This document shows positions 1 to 9,612 of a stretch of DNA of 9,612 bases, in pieces (the first letter of the stretch is position 1; every line of letters starts with the position of its first letter). The translations under genes were made by a program, and so were the position numbers. The stretch lies in the IMG/VR virus record IMGVR_UViG_2636416140_000002. One strand, given 5' to 3'. The DNA comes from a virus (lineage: Duplodnaviria > Heunggongvirae > Uroviricota > Caudoviricetes). The notes below the pieces were generated by a model. That model had not been told where the DNA came from and ran no database searches. It was given only the letters and a program-made list of their open reading frames with translations.

Positions 1-533
1 GAAAAACCAGAGATAAGACAGCGCCAAAATATAAAGCGTTAGACATGACAGAGCTTTCCCTAAAGGTGGCAATCAGAACGATAGACCGACACGTAGGGGA
101 AGGATACGCGAAGGAACATCCCGACCTGATAAGCGCATTCATGACCACAGCAGCGGCAAACTTTGCCACGCTGACAGAACGGGAGATTGCCGAAGCGGAA
201 CAGGTAACAACCATCAACGTTAAAACCGGAGAGGTGGAATCATGAGCGAACCAAAATTTGGTGAAAAACTTTACAAGCACAACGGACGGATCACGATTCA
301 GCAAATAAGCGCAGCTACACCAGGCTGGTGGGTTGAAACAGACGAAGGATCATCAACCGTGGCATCATGGGCGCTTTGTGTGCTTAGTTACCCTGACCGC
401 GATGTGTATCAGGATATTCTGCCTGTGATATCCACTGACAAAGGCATGAAACCCGTAGACATCAAAAACATGGGTTTTCAGTGCGTAATGCTCACTGAAA
501 AAATGATGGAAGAGATGAAAAAGAATAACGCCG
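1..533 (+). repeat. Direct repeat copy 1, apparently identical to 716-1248; truncated by the window start
   Basis: Read directly: 1-533 matches 716-1248 base for base (offset 715). Identity ends at 533/534 in copy 1 and 1248/1249 in copy 2. The repeat may extend upstream of the window. Confidence 0.9.
45..245 (+). CDS. Hypothetical small protein (66 aa from ATG 45), copy 1; frame is open to the window start, so the true start may lie upstream
   Basis: ORF with decent codon usage; its stop overlaps the next ORF's start (ATGA at 242-245), suggesting translational coupling. Identical second copy at 760-960. No recognisable family. Confidence 0.5.
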   Translation: MTELSLKVAIRTIDRHVGEGYAKEHPDLISAFMTTAAANFATLTEREIAEAEQVTTINVKTGEVES

Positions 534-712
534 TGGGGAATTTAACAAAATTGAAACATAATTACCCACTTTCCCACCTGTATATACCCAAAAAAGTGGG
601 GAGTAAAAAATATATTGAAAAACATCACGTTAGAATCACCAAAAAAAGAGGTGGGGAGACGGTGGGTAATTTCAAAAAGTGGGGAGCAAAAGTGGGGAGT
701 AGTGGGGAATGA
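242..712 (+). CDS. Hypothetical protein, duplicated copy 1; first 97 codons identical to 957-1262, then reads through into the iteron region (probable chimeric C-terminus created by the duplication junction)
   Basis: ORF track 156 aa. C-terminal part is encoded by GTGGGGA repeats and A-tracts (VG/KK-rich translation), which looks non-native. Copy 2 ends 3 codons after the divergence point. Confidence 0.4.
   Translation: MSEPKFGEKLYKHNGRITIQQISAATPGWWVETDEGSSTVASWALCVLSYPDRDVYQDILPVISTDKGMKPVDIKNMGFQCVMLTEKMMEEMKKNNAVGNLTKLKHNYPLSHLYIPKKVGSKKYIEKHHVRITKKRGGETVGNFKKWGAKVGSSGE
533..711. repeat. Iteron-like array: at least 7 direct (A)GTGGGGA(G) repeats plus inverted half-sites (CCCACTTT, CCCACC), separated by A-tracts and an AT-rich core; putative replication origin
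   Basis: Direct GTGGGGA copies at about 533-539, 595-603, 651-658, 679-687, 691-699, 701-708 and variant GTGGGT at 662-667; inverted copies at 565-578; AT-rich stretch 541-650. Confidence 0.6.
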
Positions 713-960
713 ACAGAAAAACCAGAGATAAGACAGCGCCAAAATATAAAGCGTTAGACATGACAGAGCTTTCCCTAAAGGTGGCAATCAGAACGATAGA
801 CCGACACGTAGGGGAAGGATACGCGAAGGAACATCCCGACCTGATAAGCGCATTCATGACCACAGCAGCGGCAAACTTTGCCACGCTGACAGAACGGGAG
901 ATTGCCGAAGCGGAACAGGTAACAACCATCAACGTTAAAACCGGAGAGGTGGAATCATGA
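709..960 (+). CDS. Hypothetical small protein, copy 2 (83 aa from ATG 709; 66 aa if the start is ATG 760)
   Basis: Identical to the 45-245 ORF over the shared part. ATG 709 lies inside the last iteron with GGGGAG about 9 nt upstream; ATG 760 has no obvious SD. Stop overlaps the next start (ATGA). Confidence 0.5.
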   Translation: MNRKTRDKTAPKYKALDMTELSLKVAIRTIDRHVGEGYAKEHPDLISAFMTTAAANFATLTEREIAEAEQVTTINVKTGEVES

Positions 961-1248
961 GCGAACCAAAATTTGGTGAAAAACTTTACAAGCACAACGG
1001 ACGGATCACGATTCAGCAAATAAGCGCAGCTACACCAGGCTGGTGGGTTGAAACAGACGAAGGATCATCAACCGTGGCATCATGGGCGCTTTGTGTGCTT
1101 AGTTACCCTGACCGCGATGTGTATCAGGATATTCTGCCTGTGATATCCACTGACAAAGGCATGAAACCCGTAGACATCAAAAACATGGGTTTTCAGTGCG
1201 TAATGCTCACTGAAAAAATGATGGAAGAGATGAAAAAGAATAACGCCG
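716..1248 (+). repeat. Direct repeat copy 2 (identical to 1-533)
   Basis: See copy 1. The 715-bp period equals the 533-bp block plus the 182-bp iteron region, consistent with a tandem duplication of an iteron-plus-gene unit. Confidence 0.9.
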
Positions 1249-1262
1249 GATCGCTTCACTGA
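957..1262 (+). CDS. Hypothetical protein (101 aa), copy 2, probably the intact ancestral version
   Basis: ORF translationally coupled to the upstream small ORF; stop at 1260-1262 overlaps the SD of the downstream SSB gene. No recognisable domain by eye. Confidence 0.55.
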   Translation: MSEPKFGEKLYKHNGRITIQQISAATPGWWVETDEGSSTVASWALCVLSYPDRDVYQDILPVISTDKGMKPVDIKNMGFQCVMLTEKMMEEMKKNNAGSLH

Positions 1263-2165: not shown

Positions 2166-2255
2166 CGATCGGTGCGATTACTGATTTCCTTATGAAAAAC
2201 GGTTGAGTGTTTGCCGCGTCCTGGAGTTCCTTACTTAACCCCAGGACTTTTTTTT

Positions 2256-3413
2256 ATGCCGAGAATAATCGAATTACGCCAGCAGAAAACCGCCATTAAA
2301 AATCAGATGCGCGACATGCTGGAGAACGCGGAAAAAGAAAACCGCAGCCTTAACGATGCAGAGGGCGCAAAATTTGACGAATTACGCGCTAAAGCTGAAT
2401 CCCTCGATAAAGACATTTCCCGCCTTGAAGCCATTGCAGACGAAGAGCGCAGCAAGCCAGGTAAAAGCAGTCAGACCACTGACCCCGCAGAACTCCGCAA
2501 CTACATTCTGACAGGTGAAACCCGCGCATTAAGTACAGGCGTTCCCGCTGATGGTGGTTATACCGTTATCCCTGAACTGAACACCGAAATCATGCGAATG
2601 CTGGCGGATGAATCCACCATGCGCCGCATCTGTACCGTGAAGAAAATCAGCAGCAACGAGTTTAAGCAGCTTGTTTCCGCTGGCGGTGCGACCGTTAACC
2701 ACGGTGAAGAGGGTAAGGCACGCGAACAGACCAGCACCCCGCAGATTAACGAGGTGAGCATCAAGCTGTATCCGGTCTATGCGTACCCGCGCACCACACA
2801 GGAAATCGTGGATTTTTCCGATGTGGACATCCTTTCATGGCTGACGGGTGAGATTGGCGACACCTTCACGGAAACCGAAGAAAGCGATCTGGTTGTGGGC
2901 GACGGTGACAAAAAAGCAAAAGGTTTTTTATCCGTACCCCGTGCAGAGAAGAACGACAAAGAGCGTGATTTTGGTACGTTGCAGGTAATTAAACCTTCCG
3001 AATCTCTGGCGTGGACATCTGCGGACCCGCTGATCGACCTGAAATTTGCATTACGTAAAAAATACCGCAAAAACGCGGTCTGGGTGGTTAACTCCACGAC
3101 GGCGGCAAAACTTCAGAAGGTGAAGAACGCGAACGGTGATTATATCTGGCGCGACCGTTTACAGGCGGGTGATCCTGATACGTTGCTGGGCCTTCCGGTC
3201 GAATATCTGGAGTTTATGCCTGATAACGTTATTGCCCTGGGTGACTTCAAACGCGGTTACTACATTGTTGATCACGAAACAGGTGTTCGCACCAGACCGG
3301 ACAACCTGACAGAACCAGGATTCATCAAAATTTTCACGCAAAAATATTTAGGCGGTGGCGTGGTGGATTCGAACGCGATCAAGATTCTGGAACTGCCGGA
3401 AGACGACGATTAA
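2256..3413 (+). CDS. Phage major capsid protein, HK97 family, with N-terminal scaffolding (delta) domain
   Basis: 385 aa from ATG 2256 (ORF track starts at TTG 2211). Coiled-coil-like N-terminus (ELRQQKTAIKNQMRDMLENAEKENRSLNDAE...) followed by an HK97-fold-like body; AGGA 10 nt upstream of ATG. Confidence 0.92.
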   Translation: MPRIIELRQQKTAIKNQMRDMLENAEKENRSLNDAEGAKFDELRAKAESLDKDISRLEAIADEERSKPGKSSQTTDPAELRNYILTGETRALSTGVPADGGYTVIPELNTEIMRMLADESTMRRICTVKKISSNEFKQLVSAGGATVNHGEEGKAREQTSTPQINEVSIKLYPVYAYPRTTQEIVDFSDVDILSWLTGEIGDTFTETEESDLVVGDGDKKAKGFLSVPRAEKNDKERDFGTLQVIKPSESLAWTSADPLIDLKFALRKKYRKNAVWVVNSTTAAKLQKVKNANGDYIWRDRLQAGDPDTLLGLPVEYLEFMPDNVIALGDFKRGYYIVDHETGVRTRPDNLTEPGFIKIFTQKYLGGGVVDSNAIKILELPEDDD

Positions 3414-3423
3414 CAGCATACAG

Positions 3424-3452
3424 AAGGGGCTTAAAAGCCCCTTTAGTGTTTT
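3424..3452 (+). terminator. Hairpin immediately after the capsid gene (partial terminator or mRNA-stabilising stem-loop)
   Basis: AAGGGGC (3424-3430), loop TTAAAA, GCCCCTT (3437-3443), then TAGTGTTTT. The U-tract is interrupted, so read-through into the protease gene is likely. Confidence 0.5.
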
Positions 3453-4025
3453 ATGGGTGAAAAAATTATGAAGAGTATGGAAATCCGGTCATCGGAAATC
3501 ACCACCAGCGCCAGCAACACGCTTACAGGCTACGTTGTTCGCTGGGATAACCTTTCAGAGCTGCTATGGGGGGAGTTTTACGAAAAATTCCAGCGGGGAG
3601 CGTTTACTGAATGGCTTGCGGCGGGTAATGACGTTCGCGGCCTGTATGAGCATGACCACAGCATGTTACTGGGGCGCACCCGTTCCGGCACGCTGAAACT
3701 GGAAGAGGACGAAACAGGGTTACGCTTTGAACTGACCCCACCGGATACCAGTACAGGGCGCGACGTTATCGAACTGGTTAAGCGTGGGGACATCTCGGGG
3801 ATGAGCTTTGGCTTTCGCTCCCGTAAGGATGTATGGGATACCACAACAGATCCATGCGTGCGCACCGTGCTGGTGGCGGAACTGTACGAAATTACCGTTA
3901 CATCGGTACCGGCTTACCCCGATTCCGGCGTGGAGCTGGCCCGCCGTTCCCTGTATGAGCAGCACCCCGAAAAAATGCCGCGTGCGGATAATCGCCGCTG
4001 GTGGGCGGATTTAGCGGGGGTGTGA
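3453..4025 (+). CDS. Phage prohead (maturation) protease, HK97 family
   Basis: Motifs typical of HK97-type prohead proteases (GYVVRW..., EHDHSMLLGRTRSGTL, GMSFGF). Alternative starts at ATG 3468 and 3477; none has a clear SD. Confidence 0.9.
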   Translation: MGEKIMKSMEIRSSEITTSASNTLTGYVVRWDNLSELLWGEFYEKFQRGAFTEWLAAGNDVRGLYEHDHSMLLGRTRSGTLKLEEDETGLRFELTPPDTSTGRDVIELVKRGDISGMSFGFRSRKDVWDTTTDPCVRTVLVAELYEITVTSVPAYPDSGVELARRSLYEQHPEKMPRADNRRWWADLAGV

Positions 4026-4026
4026 T

Positions 4027-5238
4027 ATGTGGCCTTTCAGAAGAAAAAAAGAGCAGCGCAGCATGACGCTTGATGAGTTTATGGCGCTGGCTGGCACATC
4101 GAACACGGGGGCGGGTGAGTACGTATCATCGGGGACAGCGGAATCACTGCCCGCCGTCATGAACGCCGTCACGGTCATCTCTGAGGCGGTGGCTACCATG
4201 CCGTGTTACCTGTACCTGGTACGCAATGAGAAGGGGAAGGAGGCCCGAGAGTGGCTTGATTCTCATCCGGTCGATCACATCCTCAACGAGCGCCCGAACG
4301 CGTGGCAGACTCCCTACCAGTTTAAGCGAATGATGATCCGCCACTGCCTGTTAAACGGTAATGCTTATGCGGTGATTCAGTGGGGGCGTGATGGTTTTCC
4401 GGTGGCTTTACATCCTTACCCGCCGCAGTCGGTGAACGTGGAGCAGACAGGCGAACACAACTGGCGCTACTGCATCACTGACGCCTACACCGGAAACACC
4501 CGCAACTATTTACCGTGGGAGGTTCTCCACCTTCGTTACTCCACGGATGACGGTTTTATGGGGCGCTCACCTGTAACCATCTGCCGCGAATCGCTGGGGC
4601 TTGGGCTGGCCCAACAACGCCACGGCGCGAGCGTGATGCGTGATGGCATGATGGCGGCAGGGGTTATCACGTCAGGCGAATGGCTGGACGGCGTGAAGGG
4701 CAAACAGGCATTAGCCGCACTGGAACGCTACAAAGGGGCCAGAAACGCCGGAAAAACGCCCATCCTTGAAGGGGGTATGAGCTATCAGCAGCTGGGCATG
4801 AGTAATCAGGATGCTGAATGGCTGGCCTCCCGTCGCTTCACCATTGAAGACATCGCCCGAATGTTCAACGTCTCGCCGATTTTTTTGCAGGAATACAGCA
4901 ACAGCACCTACAGCAATTTCAGCGAGGCAAGCCGCGCATTTCTCACCATGACGATGCGCCCGTGGCTGGCGAACTTTGAGCAGCAGATAAAAAACGCCCT
5001 GCTGGTGGCCTCGCCTGTACCTGGTATCCGGTATCAGGTGGAGTTTGACAGCGCGGACCTGTTACGGGCCACACCAGGCGAACGCTTTGCCACCTATGAA
5101 CGCGGCATCAAATCCGGCGTTATGTGCCCGAACGAAGCCCGCGAACGTGAAGGGCTGTCCCCGCGTGATGGTGGTGATGAGTTCAGCCAGGCATGGAAAC
5201 AGGAAGTAAAAATCAGCGAGGGAGAAAAACCGGAATGA
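4027..5238 (+). CDS. Phage portal protein, HK97 family
   Basis: 403 aa. Start is 1 nt after the protease stop, with a GGGGG SD. Central and C-terminal regions look like HK97-type portals; acidic C-terminal tail. Alternative start ATG 4063. Confidence 0.92.
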   Translation: MWPFRRKKEQRSMTLDEFMALAGTSNTGAGEYVSSGTAESLPAVMNAVTVISEAVATMPCYLYLVRNEKGKEAREWLDSHPVDHILNERPNAWQTPYQFKRMMIRHCLLNGNAYAVIQWGRDGFPVALHPYPPQSVNVEQTGEHNWRYCITDAYTGNTRNYLPWEVLHLRYSTDDGFMGRSPVTICRESLGLGLAQQRHGASVMRDGMMAAGVITSGEWLDGVKGKQALAALERYKGARNAGKTPILEGGMSYQQLGMSNQDAEWLASRRFTIEDIARMFNVSPIFLQEYSNSTYSNFSEASRAFLTMTMRPWLANFEQQIKNALLVASPVPGIRYQVEFDSADLLRATPGERFATYERGIKSGVMCPNEAREREGLSPRDGGDEFSQAWKQEVKISEGEKPE

Positions 5239-5573
5239 ACATAGGGCGACTGCGTGACAGGGTAACGATTCAGACCCTGAAACAGACCAGGGATATAACC
5301 GGCGAAATACTCGAAACGTGGGAGGACGGTCACACACTCTGGGCAAGCGTGAACATGATCAGCAGCAAGGAGGCCATTTCATCGGGTGCAGAGCTGGCGA
5401 TTGGTACCGTAAGGATCTGGATACGGTACCGGAAGGACATCAACGCCACCAGCCGGATAAAGGTCAGTACGGGGCCGCTGGCGGGGCGTGTACTGAATAT
5501 CATCGGGCAGCCGCTGCCGGATGCCGCCAGGACACGCCTTGAAATTCTTTGTCGTGAGGGCGCGGAAAAATGA
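5235..5573 (+). CDS. Head-tail adaptor / head-closure protein (head-tail joining family)
   Basis: ATG 5235 overlaps the portal stop (ATGA). 112 aa with a pattern typical of phage head-tail joining proteins (RDRVTIQ..., ...WASV..., ...RIWIRYR...). ORF track's longer start at 5193 is less likely. Confidence 0.75.
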   Translation: MNIGRLRDRVTIQTLKQTRDITGEILETWEDGHTLWASVNMISSKEAISSGAELAIGTVRIWIRYRKDINATSRIKVSTGPLAGRVLNIIGQPLPDAARTRLEILCREGAEK

Positions 5574-5866
5574 CAGAAGAACTTATCACCCTGGAAGAAG
5601 TGAAACTCCATTGCCGCATCGATGGCGACGAGGAAGACCAGTTAATCAGCGGATACATTGCCGCATCGCTTGAGGCGTGCCAGATACATATAGGCAGGCG
5701 CTTTGATGACGGGCTGGAGTTCACGCCAGCCATAAAGATTGGCTGCATGATGTTTATCGCTCACCTGTACGAGAATCGCCAGCTGGTAGCGGATAACGCA
5801 AAAACGCGCGTACCCATGACGATTGGCGCGCTCTGGACGGCTTACCGTGATGTGGGGGTGTACTGA
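5570..5866 (+). CDS. gp6-like head-tail connector protein
   Basis: ATGA overlap with the upstream gene. N-terminus ITLEEVKLHCRIDGDEEDQLISGYIAASLEACQ is characteristic of gp6-like connector / DNA-packaging proteins. Confidence 0.82.
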   Translation: MTEELITLEEVKLHCRIDGDEEDQLISGYIAASLEACQIHIGRRFDDGLEFTPAIKIGCMMFIAHLYENRQLVADNAKTRVPMTIGALWTAYRDVGVY

Positions 5867-6306
5867 TGCCGTGGCAACCATTAAGACGATGCACAGAACC
5901 AGGCTGTAACAGGCGCGTGAAGTCCGGCAAGTGTGAGGAGCACAGGCGGGCGGCATGGCGTGCAGAGGATGCCAGACGAGGACACCGCCGCGCGCGTGGG
6001 TACTCCAGACAGTGGGACAAATACCGCGCCATGTATCTGAGTAAAAACCCGTTATGCGTGCGATGCCTTGAGAAGGGGATATATACGCCCGCCGTGGTGG
6101 TGGATCACATTATCCCGATTAATGGCGGTGATGATGTTCTCTTCTGGCCCGAATGGAACCATCAACCATTGTGCCAGGCGTGTCATAACCAGAAAACGAA
6201 ATGGCTTGATCCGGCAACAAAAAGCAAGCGTGCCGCAGGTGGATTTCATGAAGAGGAAGAACGGGCCGCTAACCGCAATAACTGGATGTATGACGCTGAT
6301 GAATGA
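5866..6306 (+). CDS. HNH endonuclease (packaging-associated, adjacent to terminase)
   Basis: Cys-rich N-terminus (C..PGC...GKCEEH) and HNH core (VVDHIIPINGGDD...NHQPLCQACHNQKT). TGATG overlap with the connector gene. Position just upstream of terS is typical of cos-type HK97-like systems. Confidence 0.9.
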   Translation: MPWQPLRRCTEPGCNRRVKSGKCEEHRRAAWRAEDARRGHRRARGYSRQWDKYRAMYLSKNPLCVRCLEKGIYTPAVVVDHIIPINGGDDVLFWPEWNHQPLCQACHNQKTKWLDPATKSKRAAGGFHEEEERAANRNNWMYDADE

Positions 6307-6472
6307 GCGGGAACAAAACCGCCTTATCCGTGGACTGATAAGGCAGCGTGACGCATGGAAGACACAGGAAACAGGGCATAAAGATAAAGCGTCAGGACGC
6401 GCAGAACGCATCACAGCGAAGCGATTAACCGACCGTGGCCGCGAGGTTATGGAATGTTTCCGCAATCGCTGA
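6299..6472 (+). CDS. Hypothetical small ORF (57 aa) in the HNH-terS interval; may instead be a displaced fragment of the terS 5' region
   Basis: ATG 6299 overlaps the HNH 3' end; weak SD. Sequence ...SGRAERITAKRLTDRGRE loosely resembles Arg/Lys-rich N-termini of small terminases. Low confidence. Confidence 0.3.
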   Translation: MNEREQNRLIRGLIRQRDAWKTQETGHKDKASGRAERITAKRLTDRGREVMECFRNR

Positions 6473-6542
6473 TGAGGCTGTATGACGGGGTGGGGGGCGT
6501 TTTCAGGACAAACCCGACCCCGCCTACCTGGATGACATCGCC

Positions 6543-6854
6543 GTGAAGCAGTGGCGGGAAAAATCGCGGCAGCTTGCGGAACGGGGAGACCTGACCCCCG
6601 CCGACTGGAGCAATCTGGAACTGTATTGTGTCAACTACTCCATTTACCGGAAAGCCGTCGCAGACCTTGCGGCGCGCGGGTTCAGCATTGTTAACAGTCA
6701 GGGCGGCGAGAGCAGAAACCCCGCATTAAGCGCGAAATCAGACGCTGAAAGGGTGATGATAAAAATGGCCTCCTTGCTCGGTTTTGACCCGATAAGCCGC
6801 CGTAAAAACCCACCGGAAACAGAAGAAGAGGACGAGCTTGACCGCCTGGAATAA
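6543..6854 (+). CDS. terS: Terminase small subunit, P27/HK97-gp1-like family; annotated in-frame part only, N-terminus appears frame-disrupted
   Basis: Conserved-looking core DLTPADWSNLELYCVNYSIYRKAV. The family motif appears to begin upstream of the first in-frame start (GTG 6543) as ...KPDPAYLDDIA in the same frame, which is closed by a stop at 6483-6485. A good SD plus ATG at 6454 is in the +1 frame. Confidence 0.8.
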   Translation: MKQWREKSRQLAERGDLTPADWSNLELYCVNYSIYRKAVADLAARGFSIVNSQGGESRNPALSAKSDAERVMIKMASLLGFDPISRRKNPPETEEEDELDRLE

Positions 6855-8499
6855 GTACGCAGAAGACGTAAAAACGGGCAAAATTCCGGCCTGTAAACGG
6901 CTGAAACAGGCCGTTAAACGGTACTTTTCGGACCTTAAAAGCCCCCTTTACACGTTCGATCGTGAGGTTGTGGAGCGGTTTATTGCCTTTTCCAGGGTGT
7001 GCCCGCACGTAAAAGGACCGATGCGTGGCAGACCCATTGAGCTGGAGCCGTGGCAGCAGTTCGCCTTTGCGTGCATCCTCGGCTTTAAGGTTAAGGCCAC
7101 CGGACGGCGCAAATACACGAGCGCCTTTATCGAAGTGCCGCGCAAAAATGCGAAATCCACGACCGCCGCGATTCTGGCTAACTGGTTTCTGATTATGGAG
7201 AACGGTCAGCAGGATATCTACACCGCAGCGGTGAGCCGTGACCAGGCGCGGATCGTCTTTGATGATGCGCGTCAGATGTGCCTTTTATCCCGACCGTTAC
7301 GCAGGCGGGTGAATATTCAGGCGCATAAGGTGATACACCCGAAAAGCAACAGCCTGTTAAAGCCGCTGGCAGCAAAAGCGGCAACCATCGAGGGAACAAA
7401 CCCAAGCCTTTCCATCGTGGACGAATACCACTTGCACCCCGATAACGGCGTTTATTCCGCGCTTGAGCTGGGGATGGGCGCACGTCCCGAAGGGCTGTTA
7501 TTTGCCATTACCACATCAGGCAGCAACGTCGTTTCAGCCTGTAAACAGCACTATGATTATTGCTGCCAGATCCTGGACGGCGAAGAGGTTAACGATTCAA
7601 TTTTTGTACTGATTTACGAACTGGACGACGAAAACGAGGTTGATGATCCGGCGATGTGGATAAAGGCGAACCCTAATATTGATGTTTCCGTCGATCGTGA
7701 AAAACTGGCCTCAACCATCCAGAAAGCGCGGGGTATTCCGTCGCAGTGGGTGGAGATGATGACAAAGCGATTTAATATCTGGTGCCAGGGGGCTACCCCG
7801 TGGATGGGTAACGGCGCATGGGCTGAGTGTGCCGGAACGTTCACGGAGGAAGATTTACACGGCCAGGAGTGTTACGCGGGGCTGGACTTATCATCAACCA
7901 GCGATATTTCCAGCGTGTGCTATGCCTTTCCGGTCGGTAAAACCATTATGCTGGTTTCCCGTCACTATCTGCCGGAATTTCAGCTACAGAACCCCGCCAA
8001 TAAAAACCGCGCCATCTATCGTCAGTGGGCTAAAGCAGGCTGGATACGCACAACGCCTGGCGACTGCATTGATTACGACCGGATCAGAGATGACATCATG
8101 CAGGACGCGGAGAAATTTAATATCAGGCTGGTGGGCTTTGATACGTGGAACGCCACGCATCTCAGAACGCAATTACAGGGGGCAGGTTTTGAGGTGGAGC
8201 CGTTCCCGCAAACCTACCTCAGATTCAGTCCGGCGGCGAAATCGTTCGAAGTTTTTGTTAACCGCAGGGTGATTGTGCATCGTGGCGATCCGGTGTTGTC
8301 CTGGTCGATGAGTAACGTCGTGATGCAGAGTGACGCGAACGCCAATATCAAGCCGAACAAGAAAAAATCACCGAACAAGATAGACCCGAGCGTGGCGGCG
8401 CTGATGGCGTTTGGTACATTCCAGGCAGAGCATGAGGATTTTGCTTTTGATATAAGCGACAGCCACCGCCAGAAACTGGAAGAATTTAGCGGGGTGTAA
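6838..8499 (+). CDS. terL: Terminase large subunit (ATPase and nuclease)
   Basis: 553 aa. TTG start with GAGGA SD 5 nt upstream, overlapping the terS 3' end. N-terminus AWNKYAEDVKTGKIPACKRLKQAV and ATPase region are typical of large terminases; acidic residues in the C-terminal nuclease part. Confidence 0.93.
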   Translation: MTAWNKYAEDVKTGKIPACKRLKQAVKRYFSDLKSPLYTFDREVVERFIAFSRVCPHVKGPMRGRPIELEPWQQFAFACILGFKVKATGRRKYTSAFIEVPRKNAKSTTAAILANWFLIMENGQQDIYTAAVSRDQARIVFDDARQMCLLSRPLRRRVNIQAHKVIHPKSNSLLKPLAAKAATIEGTNPSLSIVDEYHLHPDNGVYSALELGMGARPEGLLFAITTSGSNVVSACKQHYDYCCQILDGEEVNDSIFVLIYELDDENEVDDPAMWIKANPNIDVSVDREKLASTIQKARGIPSQWVEMMTKRFNIWCQGATPWMGNGAWAECAGTFTEEDLHGQECYAGLDLSSTSDISSVCYAFPVGKTIMLVSRHYLPEFQLQNPANKNRAIYRQWAKAGWIRTTPGDCIDYDRIRDDIMQDAEKFNIRLVGFDTWNATHLRTQLQGAGFEVEPFPQTYLRFSPAAKSFEVFVNRRVIVHRGDPVLSWSMSNVVMQSDANANIKPNKKKSPNKIDPSVAALMAFGTFQAEHEDFAFDISDSHRQKLEEFSGV

Positions 8500-8512
8500 T
8501 GAGGTCAGCAGC

Positions 8513-8794
8513 ATGACAGAAGCCGAAATAACGGGATTAATCCGCCGCGTTGCCGGAATCAGCCAGCAGGCTGACGAACAGGCCACGCAGCCGGACAGCG
8601 TGACAGCCGAAAACTATGCGCGTGTTGTTGCTGAGGTGATGCGCCGTGATGGTATAGAACTTAATGGCGTGGATATGCGCAACATACGAACCAGAGTTCT
8701 TGAGTTGCTGGCCTACCGTCGCCGCGTGGAGATGTATCGGGAGAAGGAGAAAATAACGTACCACTGGAAGAAGCCGGAGCGGTTGCGGCGGTAA
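8513..8794 (+). CDS. Hypothetical protein (93 aa), last gene of the packaging operon
   Basis: Good SD (GAGGT) 7 nt upstream, tight spacing after terL, reasonable codon usage. Charged, likely helical; no family recognised. Confidence 0.6.
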   Translation: MTEAEITGLIRRVAGISQQADEQATQPDSVTAENYARVVAEVMRRDGIELNGVDMRNIRTRVLELLAYRRRVEMYREKEKITYHWKKPERLRR

Positions 8795-9048
8795 CTGGTT
8801 GATATTCCCGACGGCCCAAAAATGGGTTGGCTACACCCCTCACAACTACGACATTTTCGCAGTTTAATTAATGGTCAGCTTAATCGCTAACCCGCTGATA
8901 TTTTCGGAAACCTCAATTTGAGGAAGTCGGCGCGGTAACTCGCTGAACTTTAAGCAAAGCGCAAAATTGCGCTTGCTGAATAATCATTATGATTACGCAG
9001 ATGATTAAGGAATGACCGAAGGCGGAAATTCGCCTGTGGTTAATGGGG

Positions 9049-9068
9049 GAGTTGCAGATCTGCAACTC
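9049..9068. promoter_or_regulatory. Perfect 20-bp palindrome GAGTTGCAGATCTGCAACTC (contains GATC)
   Basis: Reverse complement is identical to the sequence; lies in non-coding DNA downstream of the packaging genes. Confidence 0.6.
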
Positions 9069-9117
9069 GACCATGAAACTACGGAAACTACCCGTAGTTT
9101 GGGTAGTAAGAGTAACA

Positions 9118-9157
9118 CCCAGATTTTGGGGCTTACTCGTGATACCCAAATTTGGGG
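9118..9157. repeat. Two near-identical palindromic units CCCAGATTTTGGGG (9118-9131) and CCCAAATTTGGGG (9145-9157) in direct orientation
   Basis: Read directly; each unit is itself dyad-symmetric (CCCAAATTTGGG is a perfect palindrome). Confidence 0.55.
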
Positions 9158-9301
9158 TATCAGTGGCAACCATAACGACTTTCGTTACGGTTGATGCTTT
9201 TACCCCATTGGGGGAAAGGTATTACGATAATCATAACACCTACCGAACAGGTAAAGCCCACCAGCCTGATTAACGTTTAACCGGAAAAAAATTCCGGTAG
9301 G

Positions 9302-9313
9302 TGGGGATCCCCA
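9302..9313. promoter_or_regulatory. Perfect 12-bp palindrome TGGGGATCCCCA (contains GATC)
   Basis: Read directly; immediately downstream of hairpin CCGGAA-AAAAA-TTCCGG (9281-9297). Confidence 0.5.
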
Positions 9314-9381
9314 TATCGACATTAACGCCCCTCATGAATTGGTGTGCTTCCCCCTGGAAAGATGATCCGCCTGTATATTTC

Positions 9382-9407
9382 TTGTGTCTATTTGTTCCAC
9401 GTTGTTT
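9382..9407 (+). promoter_or_regulatory. Second copy of the 10-bp-phased TTGTKY triplet, including the exact 15-mer TTGTTCCACGTTGTT (9392-9406) shared with 2025-2039
   Basis: Hexamers at 9382 (TTGTGT), 9392 (TTGTTC) and 9402 (TTGTTT). Confidence 0.45.
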
Positions 9408-9424
9408 CATACAGTGCACCGAAC

Positions 9425-9446
9425 GGTGTAGTCACTGGTGTAGTCA
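9425..9446 (+). repeat. Direct repeat GGTGTAGTCA x2 (period 12 bp), preceded by dyad CACCG-AA-CGGTG
   Basis: Copies at 9425-9434 and 9437-9446; candidate arm-type or regulator binding sites. Confidence 0.4.
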
Positions 9447-9492
9447 TTTTGCGATTTTTGGCACTTTTTGCGGTGTTAATTATTTAATTAAA

Positions 9493-9612
9493 TCAATGTG
9501 TTATGCGAAATAAGTTATATATAACAGCAATAAATAATGCGAGAATAAACGGCACGATGATCTCGGCGGCAAAACGGATACCGCAGAGAATAATGACCAG
9601 CATTCCCAACAT
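9493..9612 (-). CDS. 3' end of a minus-strand ORF encoding a hydrophobic (membrane) segment; ATG sits exactly at the window edge, so it is either a complete 39-aa small membrane protein or the C-terminus of a longer flanking gene
   Basis: Reverse-strand translation [39 protein letters not shown], stop at 9493-9495. GC-rich third positions in the first 20 codons suggest real coding. Not in the ORF track because it is under 60 aa within the window. Confidence 0.4.

Follow-up and report, generated by a model that had tools for sequence, protein, structure and literature searches.

A probable cos- and terS-deleted remnant of an EcCIEDL933-type capsid-forming PICI and a predicted three-part cos site in its intact relatives

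Capsid-forming PICIs (cf-PICIs) are packaged by a cos mechanism that leaves cohesive ends (Alqurainy et al. 2022 preprint; He et al. 2025 preprint), and one such island, KpCIDSM30104, was described in these cf-PICI preprints as packaged efficiently, with cohesive ends and concatemers. No cos coordinates for cf-PICIs are given in either preprint (Alqurainy et al. 2022; He et al. 2025). In phage HK97, cos is cut between positions -1 and +1 to leave a 10-nt 3' overhang, and the TerS site lies at +15 to +29 (CTAACCCGATTTTTT) (PMC11331095). The HK97 genome record, which was written from the mapped ends, has its HNH gene ending 319 bp before the right end and terS starting at nt 50. The cos site of lambda (cosQ-cosN-cosB) has three parts: an element ahead of the nicking site, the nicking site itself and, beyond it, a region where the small terminase binds intrinsically bent A/T-rich DNA; the lambda overhang is a 5' overhang of 12 nt and the lambda terminase has no HNH partner. 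An HNH-dependent terminase cos site in a known satellite family is not what is new here. What we add, from sequence comparison, is a specific prediction of cf-PICI cos anatomy and a recurrent deletion derivative.

We analysed a 9,612-nt stretch of viral DNA (IMG/VR record IMGVR_UViG_2636416140_000002), referred to below as the window. Megablast matched it to 514 of 5,426 complete E. coli genomes, EDL933 among them at 98%, and the genes annotated around the EDL933 match belong to the island known as EcCIEDL933, which is the prototype of capsid-forming PICIs. The window is 98-99.8% identical to the islands of EDL933 and MBT-5. According to the ORF list and a Pfam scan, an operon running in one direction (plus strand) encodes the major capsid protein (2211-3413), prohead protease (3453-4025), portal (4027-5238), a head completion protein (5193-5573) and a gp6-like connector (5570-5866), followed by an HNH endonuclease, the terminase's packaging partner (5866-6306; Pfam HNH PF01844, E = 1.7e-8; phrog_144, E = 1e-44), a 5'-truncated terS of the P27 family (6519-6854; PF05119, E = 1.4e-23) and an intact terL (6838-8499; PF03354 and PF20441). 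Pfam together with the EDL933 and MBT-5 annotation placed these head and packaging genes in one operon without tail genes, and Rfam and tRNA scans of the window returned no matches. On this evidence we identify the window as a capsid-forming PICI of the EcCIEDL933 type. It shares with EcCIEDL933 and KpCIDSM30104 the gene order, near-identical sequence and island-encoded HNH, TerS and TerL for cos-type packaging, but unlike them it lacks 97 bp that include the terS start and a conserved core.

An earlier sequence-only reading had placed a candidate cos site in the interval 6307-6542, between HNH and terS. This interval is not intergenic: most of it proved to be filled by a conserved 60-aa gene of unknown function (6290-6472, plus strand), which overlaps the HNH gene by 17 nt, so that 6307-6472 is coding. 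The product matches phrog_3173 over its full length (E = 6.6e-36) and is annotated in RefSeq relatives as WP_000174068.1, and its C-terminal ...ECFRNR* is conserved across genera.

The remainder of the interval carries a deletion. Full-length E. coli matches to a 1035-bp query spanned 1132-1133 bp, each in two pieces, and alignment to MBT-5 and EDL933 showed a gap of 97-98 bp in the window between two CCCCGCC copies. The single CCCCGCC that is left (6518-6524) is the deletion junction, where the BLAST pieces overlap, and it forms the last 7 nt of a C-rich spacer, CCCGACCCCGCC (6513-6524, plus strand). Using exact-protein look-ups, we identified draft E. coli siblings that are intact at this position. 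Two of them (GCA_031594575.1 and GCA_017281985.1) match the window at 100% identity over both 2790-6524 and 6518-9612, a third (GCA_017283095.1) has one mismatch over the same segments, and all three have the intact interval and a 118-aa TerS. Apart from the 97-bp deletion and an upstream 716-bp duplication, the window is 100% identical to intact E. coli drafts. The bases missing from the window, as found in the intact sibling lineage, are GGGCACCGAACGCCTCCTCAAATTTTTATGCACGGGAATTTTTTGAAAAATAATCTGACGAAAAATAAGCATGGCAAGACCACCGAAAGCCCCCGCC; their loss removes about 70 nt of non-coding DNA, the whole of a 52-bp core, and the terS ATG with codons 1-7.

The terS frame in the window is closed upstream by a TGA at 6483, and the first ATG, GTG or TTG within it is the GTG at 6543, which corresponds to the native Val16. 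The terS start at 6543 is consequently not the native one; it is the first start codon left after the deletion. RefSeq uses the ATG start that gives a TerS of 118 aa, and this start is supported by the N-terminus MARPPKxPxYLD, which is conserved across genera. In public gene calls a 103-aa TerS with the GTG start appears in 3,350 blocks, including three elements whose interval is intact (L274, L278 and L280). A PDB sequence search with intact TerS returned no match, and a single-sequence AlphaFold model of the truncated protein had a pLDDT of 55, too low to support a fold comparison.

The same 97-bp deletion was identified in the complete genome of Shigella flexneri SFBU1023 and in four further assemblies (three NCBI assemblies and one metagenome scaffold), next to phoQ. 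These five loci (L087 in SFBU1023, L273, L275, L276 and L277) represent another haplotype: the Shigella-type deletion elements are about 97.3% identical to the window, and flanking differences come as near as 12 nt to the junction. From this divergence, the same deletion appears to have arisen, or to have been transferred, at least twice, and its recurrence in Shigella in identical form points to a favoured way of inactivating the island. HNH or terL is additionally disrupted in some of these copies.

These independent assemblies also bear on whether the deletion is real. It could be argued that the 97-bp deletion and the 716-bp duplication are both assembly or sequencing artefacts and that the real element is intact, with a normal cos and terS. 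The 100% identity of the rest of the window to drafts with an intact interval would fit this, as would the presence of a second structural oddity and the lack of any match to the deletion junction in the 5,426 complete E. coli genomes or in IMG/VR contigs. However, independent assemblies with another haplotype share precisely this deletion, and the 7-bp direct repeat that flanks it would be expected if slippage or a microhomology event had really taken place. Because an identical, repeat-flanked deletion recurs in this way, we consider an artefact unlikely.

The duplication itself is unrelated to the 97-bp deletion. It is a 716-bp tandem duplication within window positions 1-1249, recognised by comparison with the otherwise 100% identical E. 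coli drafts, with its junction at 533/534. Window positions 1-533 equal 2370-2902 of the intact sibling locus used as reference (L288), after which the sequence restarts at reference position 2187 with a 1-nt overlap. The duplication provides a second copy of phrog_1231, a gene of 83 aa, and joins a copy of the 101-aa gene phrog_27268 to a new reading frame of 156 aa. Nearby, AGTGGGGA occurs four times at 595-708, and three of these occurrences, arranged as AAAGTGGGGAG-like units, fall within 31 nt; in 200 shuffles the number of copies never reached four. These repeats, downstream of the helicase gene seen in relatives, resemble iterons at which the island would start its replication. A run of similar GTGGGGA repeats contains the left boundary of the duplicated segment.

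What the deletion removed can be judged from the intact relatives. A terS-based scan with one genome per species identified 33 loci in more than 20 genera of Enterobacterales and in Aeromonas, and from 31 elements, representing about 30 genera, we aligned the 135 nt that precede terS, scoring conservation as mean pairwise identity. In these relatives a non-coding region of about 135 bp consists of a G-box, a variable spacer and a 52-bp core, GGCACCGCCCGCCCC^CTCAAATTTTTACGCACGGTGATTTTTTTGAAAATAA, in which ^ marks the cut position discussed below. Across the 31 elements the G-box (ACGGGGTGGGGG) has an identity of 0.94, the adjoining GTTTTCAGGACAAA block 0.66 and the spacer, to which the C-rich tract belongs, 0.39, and both the first part of the core (GGCACCRCCCGCCYCCTC) and the second (AAATTTTTACGCACGGYRATTTTTTTGAAAATAA) reach 0.84. 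In the adjacent terS, identity is 0.51 at third codon positions and 0.85 at first and second positions; constraint on the non-coding core therefore equals that on protein-coding positions. The window retains the G-box (ACGGGGTGGGGGG, 6485-6497, plus strand), the moderately conserved CGTTTTCAGGACAAA (6498-6512, plus strand) and the C-rich spacer up to the deletion junction.

The layout of this region resembles HK97 cos in several respects. The gene order HNH, small ORF, terS, terL in the window puts the region between the HNH gene and terS, as in HK97, and both cognate enzymes are related: the window TerL is 27% identical to HK97 gp2 (E = 3e-47) and the HNH protein 39% identical to gp74 (E = 3e-19). 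In both systems a GC-rich ACCGCC... segment stands at the cut or its aligned equivalent, and a GC-then-T-tract segment occupies about +12 to +30, where HK97 TerS binds. Unlike HK97, the islands have their cos in the middle of a co-directional operon, after the head genes, and their TerS belongs to another family (P27, PF05119), for which no sequence similarity to HK97 gp1 was detected; in the window, moreover, the core is deleted.

We scanned circularised HK97 with a weight matrix of the 52-nt core, ungapped and on both strands. The cos junction was the best forward-strand match and ranked third of 80,562 positions (z ~4); one unrelated reverse-strand position outscored it, and the junction was scored twice because 300 nt of duplicated padding had been added at each end. 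The best nhmmer match in HK97 also fell at cos, with an E value of 0.66 that is not significant by itself. In the resulting register, HK97 ATGACCGCCGCCAAA and GTTTGAATTTAACGCTAACCCGATTTTTTT are aligned with island GGCACCGCCCGCCCC and CTCAAATTTTTACGCACGGTGATTTTTTT, respectively, and the mapped HK97 cut falls at the ^ mark. The HK97 G-run GGGCAGGGGGGGGG lies 42 nt before the cut and the island G-box 44 nt before the aligned point; among intact relatives the G-box is about 45-55 nt upstream of the predicted cut. The same register places the HK97 TerS site opposite ACGCACGGTGATTTTTTT. Taking together the weak nhmmer value, the third rank in the scan, the homologous TerL and HNH and the dissimilar TerS, we regard the cut-site alignment as moderately supported. 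The correspondence of the TerS sites is an analogy, and since the P27 TerS has no similarity to gp1, it may be convergent or wrong.

A break in this interval was also seen in a particle-derived Klebsiella record. LR881103 (vB_KppS-Ant), a linear cf-PICI of 16,548 bp, is recorded as an induced prophage. Over 2,400 and 2,800 nt on either side of the break it shows 100% identity to the chromosome of K. pneumoniae ATCC 13883, which we take to be the same strain as DSM 30104. The record starts 22 nt before terS and ends at ...GGGGTGGGGGAGGTTTTCAGGAC (equivalent to ...CAGGAC within 6498-6512 of the window), and it lacks exactly 69 bp of the ATCC 13883 chromosome; these 69 bp contain the core. On the simplest reading, the physical ends would lie within the 69 bp, and the assembly would be short of a few tens of bases at either end, although the gap could in principle be an assembly or editing artefact. 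LR881103 includes the whole G-box and 13 further bases, and the G-box is therefore not the cut site. Directly after terL, the depositors annotated a 765-aa "tail length tape measure protein" in this element (vB_KppS-Ant/KpCIDSM30104; L003:2036-4333), a gene that stands in a tail-less satellite and is absent from the window's island.

Other collections yielded no further ends. None of the IMG/VR contigs scanned for CCTCAAATTTTTAYGCACGG and none of the metagenome contigs scanned for TTTTTAYGCACGGYRATTTTTTTGAAAATAA starts or ends at the predicted cut, and blastn of the intact interval against phage records returned only other satellites and no phage with mapped ends. In a tblastn search with TerL, identity to the nearest true phages was only about 35%, which leaves no closely related phage from which known ends could be transferred.

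The sequence-only reading had proposed that 6307-6542 is itself a functional cos, in which a G-rich and a C-rich tract with dyad symmetry and the inverted repeat CCTTATC/GATAAGG serve as terminase recognition and cleavage elements. Its motif positions were correct (GGGGTGGGGGG at 6487-6497, CCCGACCCCGCC at 6513-6524, CCTTATC/GATAAGG at 6322-6343), but the tracts are 15 nt apart and not 20. A location between HNH and terS fits HK97-like systems, conservation of the G-box is very strong, and the tracts do form a 10-nt inverted repeat that is 90% complementary (6486-6495/6513-6522). The dyad, however, folds no better than shuffled sequence (z = -0.76; 46 of 200 shuffles equal or better) and is not kept in relatives: only 4 of the 31 elements have more complementarity to the G-box than shuffles do, and in the packaging-proficient Klebsiella element the stem is only 3 bp. 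A hairpin or terminator reading of the dyad was rejected on the same comparison with shuffles, and GGGGTGGGGG, allowing one mismatch at most, is not enriched in the window.

The second motif, CCTTATC/GATAAGG, is part of an 8-bp perfect inverted repeat (GCCTTATC/GATAAGGC, 6321-6344) that lies within the coding sequence of the 60-aa gene. Perfect 8-bp inverted repeats with a loop of 3-30 nt occur in 6% of dinucleotide shuffles of 6307-6542, so this one is not above chance. It is missing in Klebsiella-type relatives, and position 6337 inside it is G in the window and T in relatives. On the minus strand (6318-6347) the repeat reads as a terminator-like hairpin with a TTTGTT tail; such hairpins were no more numerous than in shuffles, and no minus-strand gene was obvious that it would terminate. 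Of the proposed elements, the G-box was thus upheld as a strongly conserved part of the cos region but not as a cut site, and neither the C-rich partner, the dyad nor the inverted repeat was upheld. Given in addition that the end of the particle-derived record lies downstream of the G-box, and that the window lacks both the 52-bp core and the terS start, we consider a functional, dyad-based cos in the window very improbable.

That the conserved block upstream of terS is mainly a promoter or other regulatory element of terS-terL, or a host-factor site, with cos elsewhere, seems to us most improbable: the block is A/T-rich and directly upstream of terS, and conservation alone cannot separate regulation from packaging signals, but the intact interval has no forward-strand sigma-70-like match, the block is co-linear and in register with mapped HK97 cos, it matches the stretch missing from the ends of the particle-derived record, and terS sits within a long co-directional operon where a promoter of its own is not obviously needed.

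We therefore favour, with a probability of about 70%, the reading that the window is a cos- and terS-deleted remnant of an EcCIEDL933-type cf-PICI whose intact relatives have a three-part cos. A cos between HNH and terS, as first proposed, accordingly holds for the family, given the HK97 layout, the cohesive ends and the break in the particle-derived record, but not for the window copy, from which the core is deleted. In intact islands, TerL and HNH would nick concatemers in the GC-rich part of the core, in a staggered manner at or near ^, and would leave a 3' overhang as in HK97. We predict termini inside GGCACC(G/A)CCCGCCCC^CTCAAATTT with an overhang of roughly 10 nt. TerS would bind the GC-then-T-tract segment just downstream of the cut, and the G-box, carried on the right-end DNA, may act in recognition or termination in the manner of lambda cosQ. 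The three-part layout is common to lambda cos and the island region, but the terminases are unrelated and the sequences differ, and a cosQ-like role for the G-box is an analogy only.

Deletion between the two CCCCGCC repeats took the core, the terS leader and terS codons 1-7. What is left at 6473-6524 would therefore be no more than the G-box arm of cos, upstream of the cut, which packaging places at the right end of the DNA, and with the conserved core and the terS start codon absent we read the interval as a cos remnant rather than a functional cos. The intact terS and cos of a self-sufficiently packaged cf-PICI are both lacking in the window. So are the core that aligns with the HK97 cut, at which the island cut is inferred, and the ACGCACGG..ATTTTTTT block, matched to HK97 +15 to +29 by register only. 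The window island may still build capsids, but with the probable cutting site and the terS start deleted, this copy is probably unable to package itself; it probably makes no normal TerS and is probably not cut or packaged by its own terminase. Against a complete loss of function, a truncated TerS might still be made from GTG 6543, and functions could be provided in trans by a helper or by a second island.

The recurrence of the deletion may have a cause other than simple replication slippage. One tentative and rather unlikely possibility is a self-inflicted scar: the island's own terminase and HNH would have broken the chromosome at cos, and the break would have been mended when the CCCCGCC repeats on either side of the cut annealed. 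In the intact sibling L288, the GC-rich part of the core (CACCGAACGCCTCC, 8180-8195) resembles terS codons 4-8 (CACCGAAAGCCCCC, 8258-8275), with 12 of 14 positions identical; this repeat-like similarity may favour deletions, and it may be a chance result of proline codons. A decayed relative in Erwinia tracheiphila (L118:2385-2828), located beside an IS1-like element, has the first ~37 capsid codons fused to terS at about codon 6-7. Its deletion is far larger and has an end within a few bases of the right-hand deletion endpoint of the window.

Because packaging into their own capsids is how cf-PICIs spread between species, the cos site decides what is mobilised. The window's island, with head genes and terL intact but no cos core or normal terS, is therefore not to be counted as a functional satellite and is probably immobile. 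If the self-inflicted scar were true, the event would have erased cos and the terS start and left the host immune to further cutting, and cos-bracketing deletions would be a recurrent route of cf-PICI domestication and genetic marks of the cut site. For the family as a whole, the comparison provides a testable prediction of a three-part cos common to about 30 genera, with a core that is co-linear with the mapped cos of HK97.
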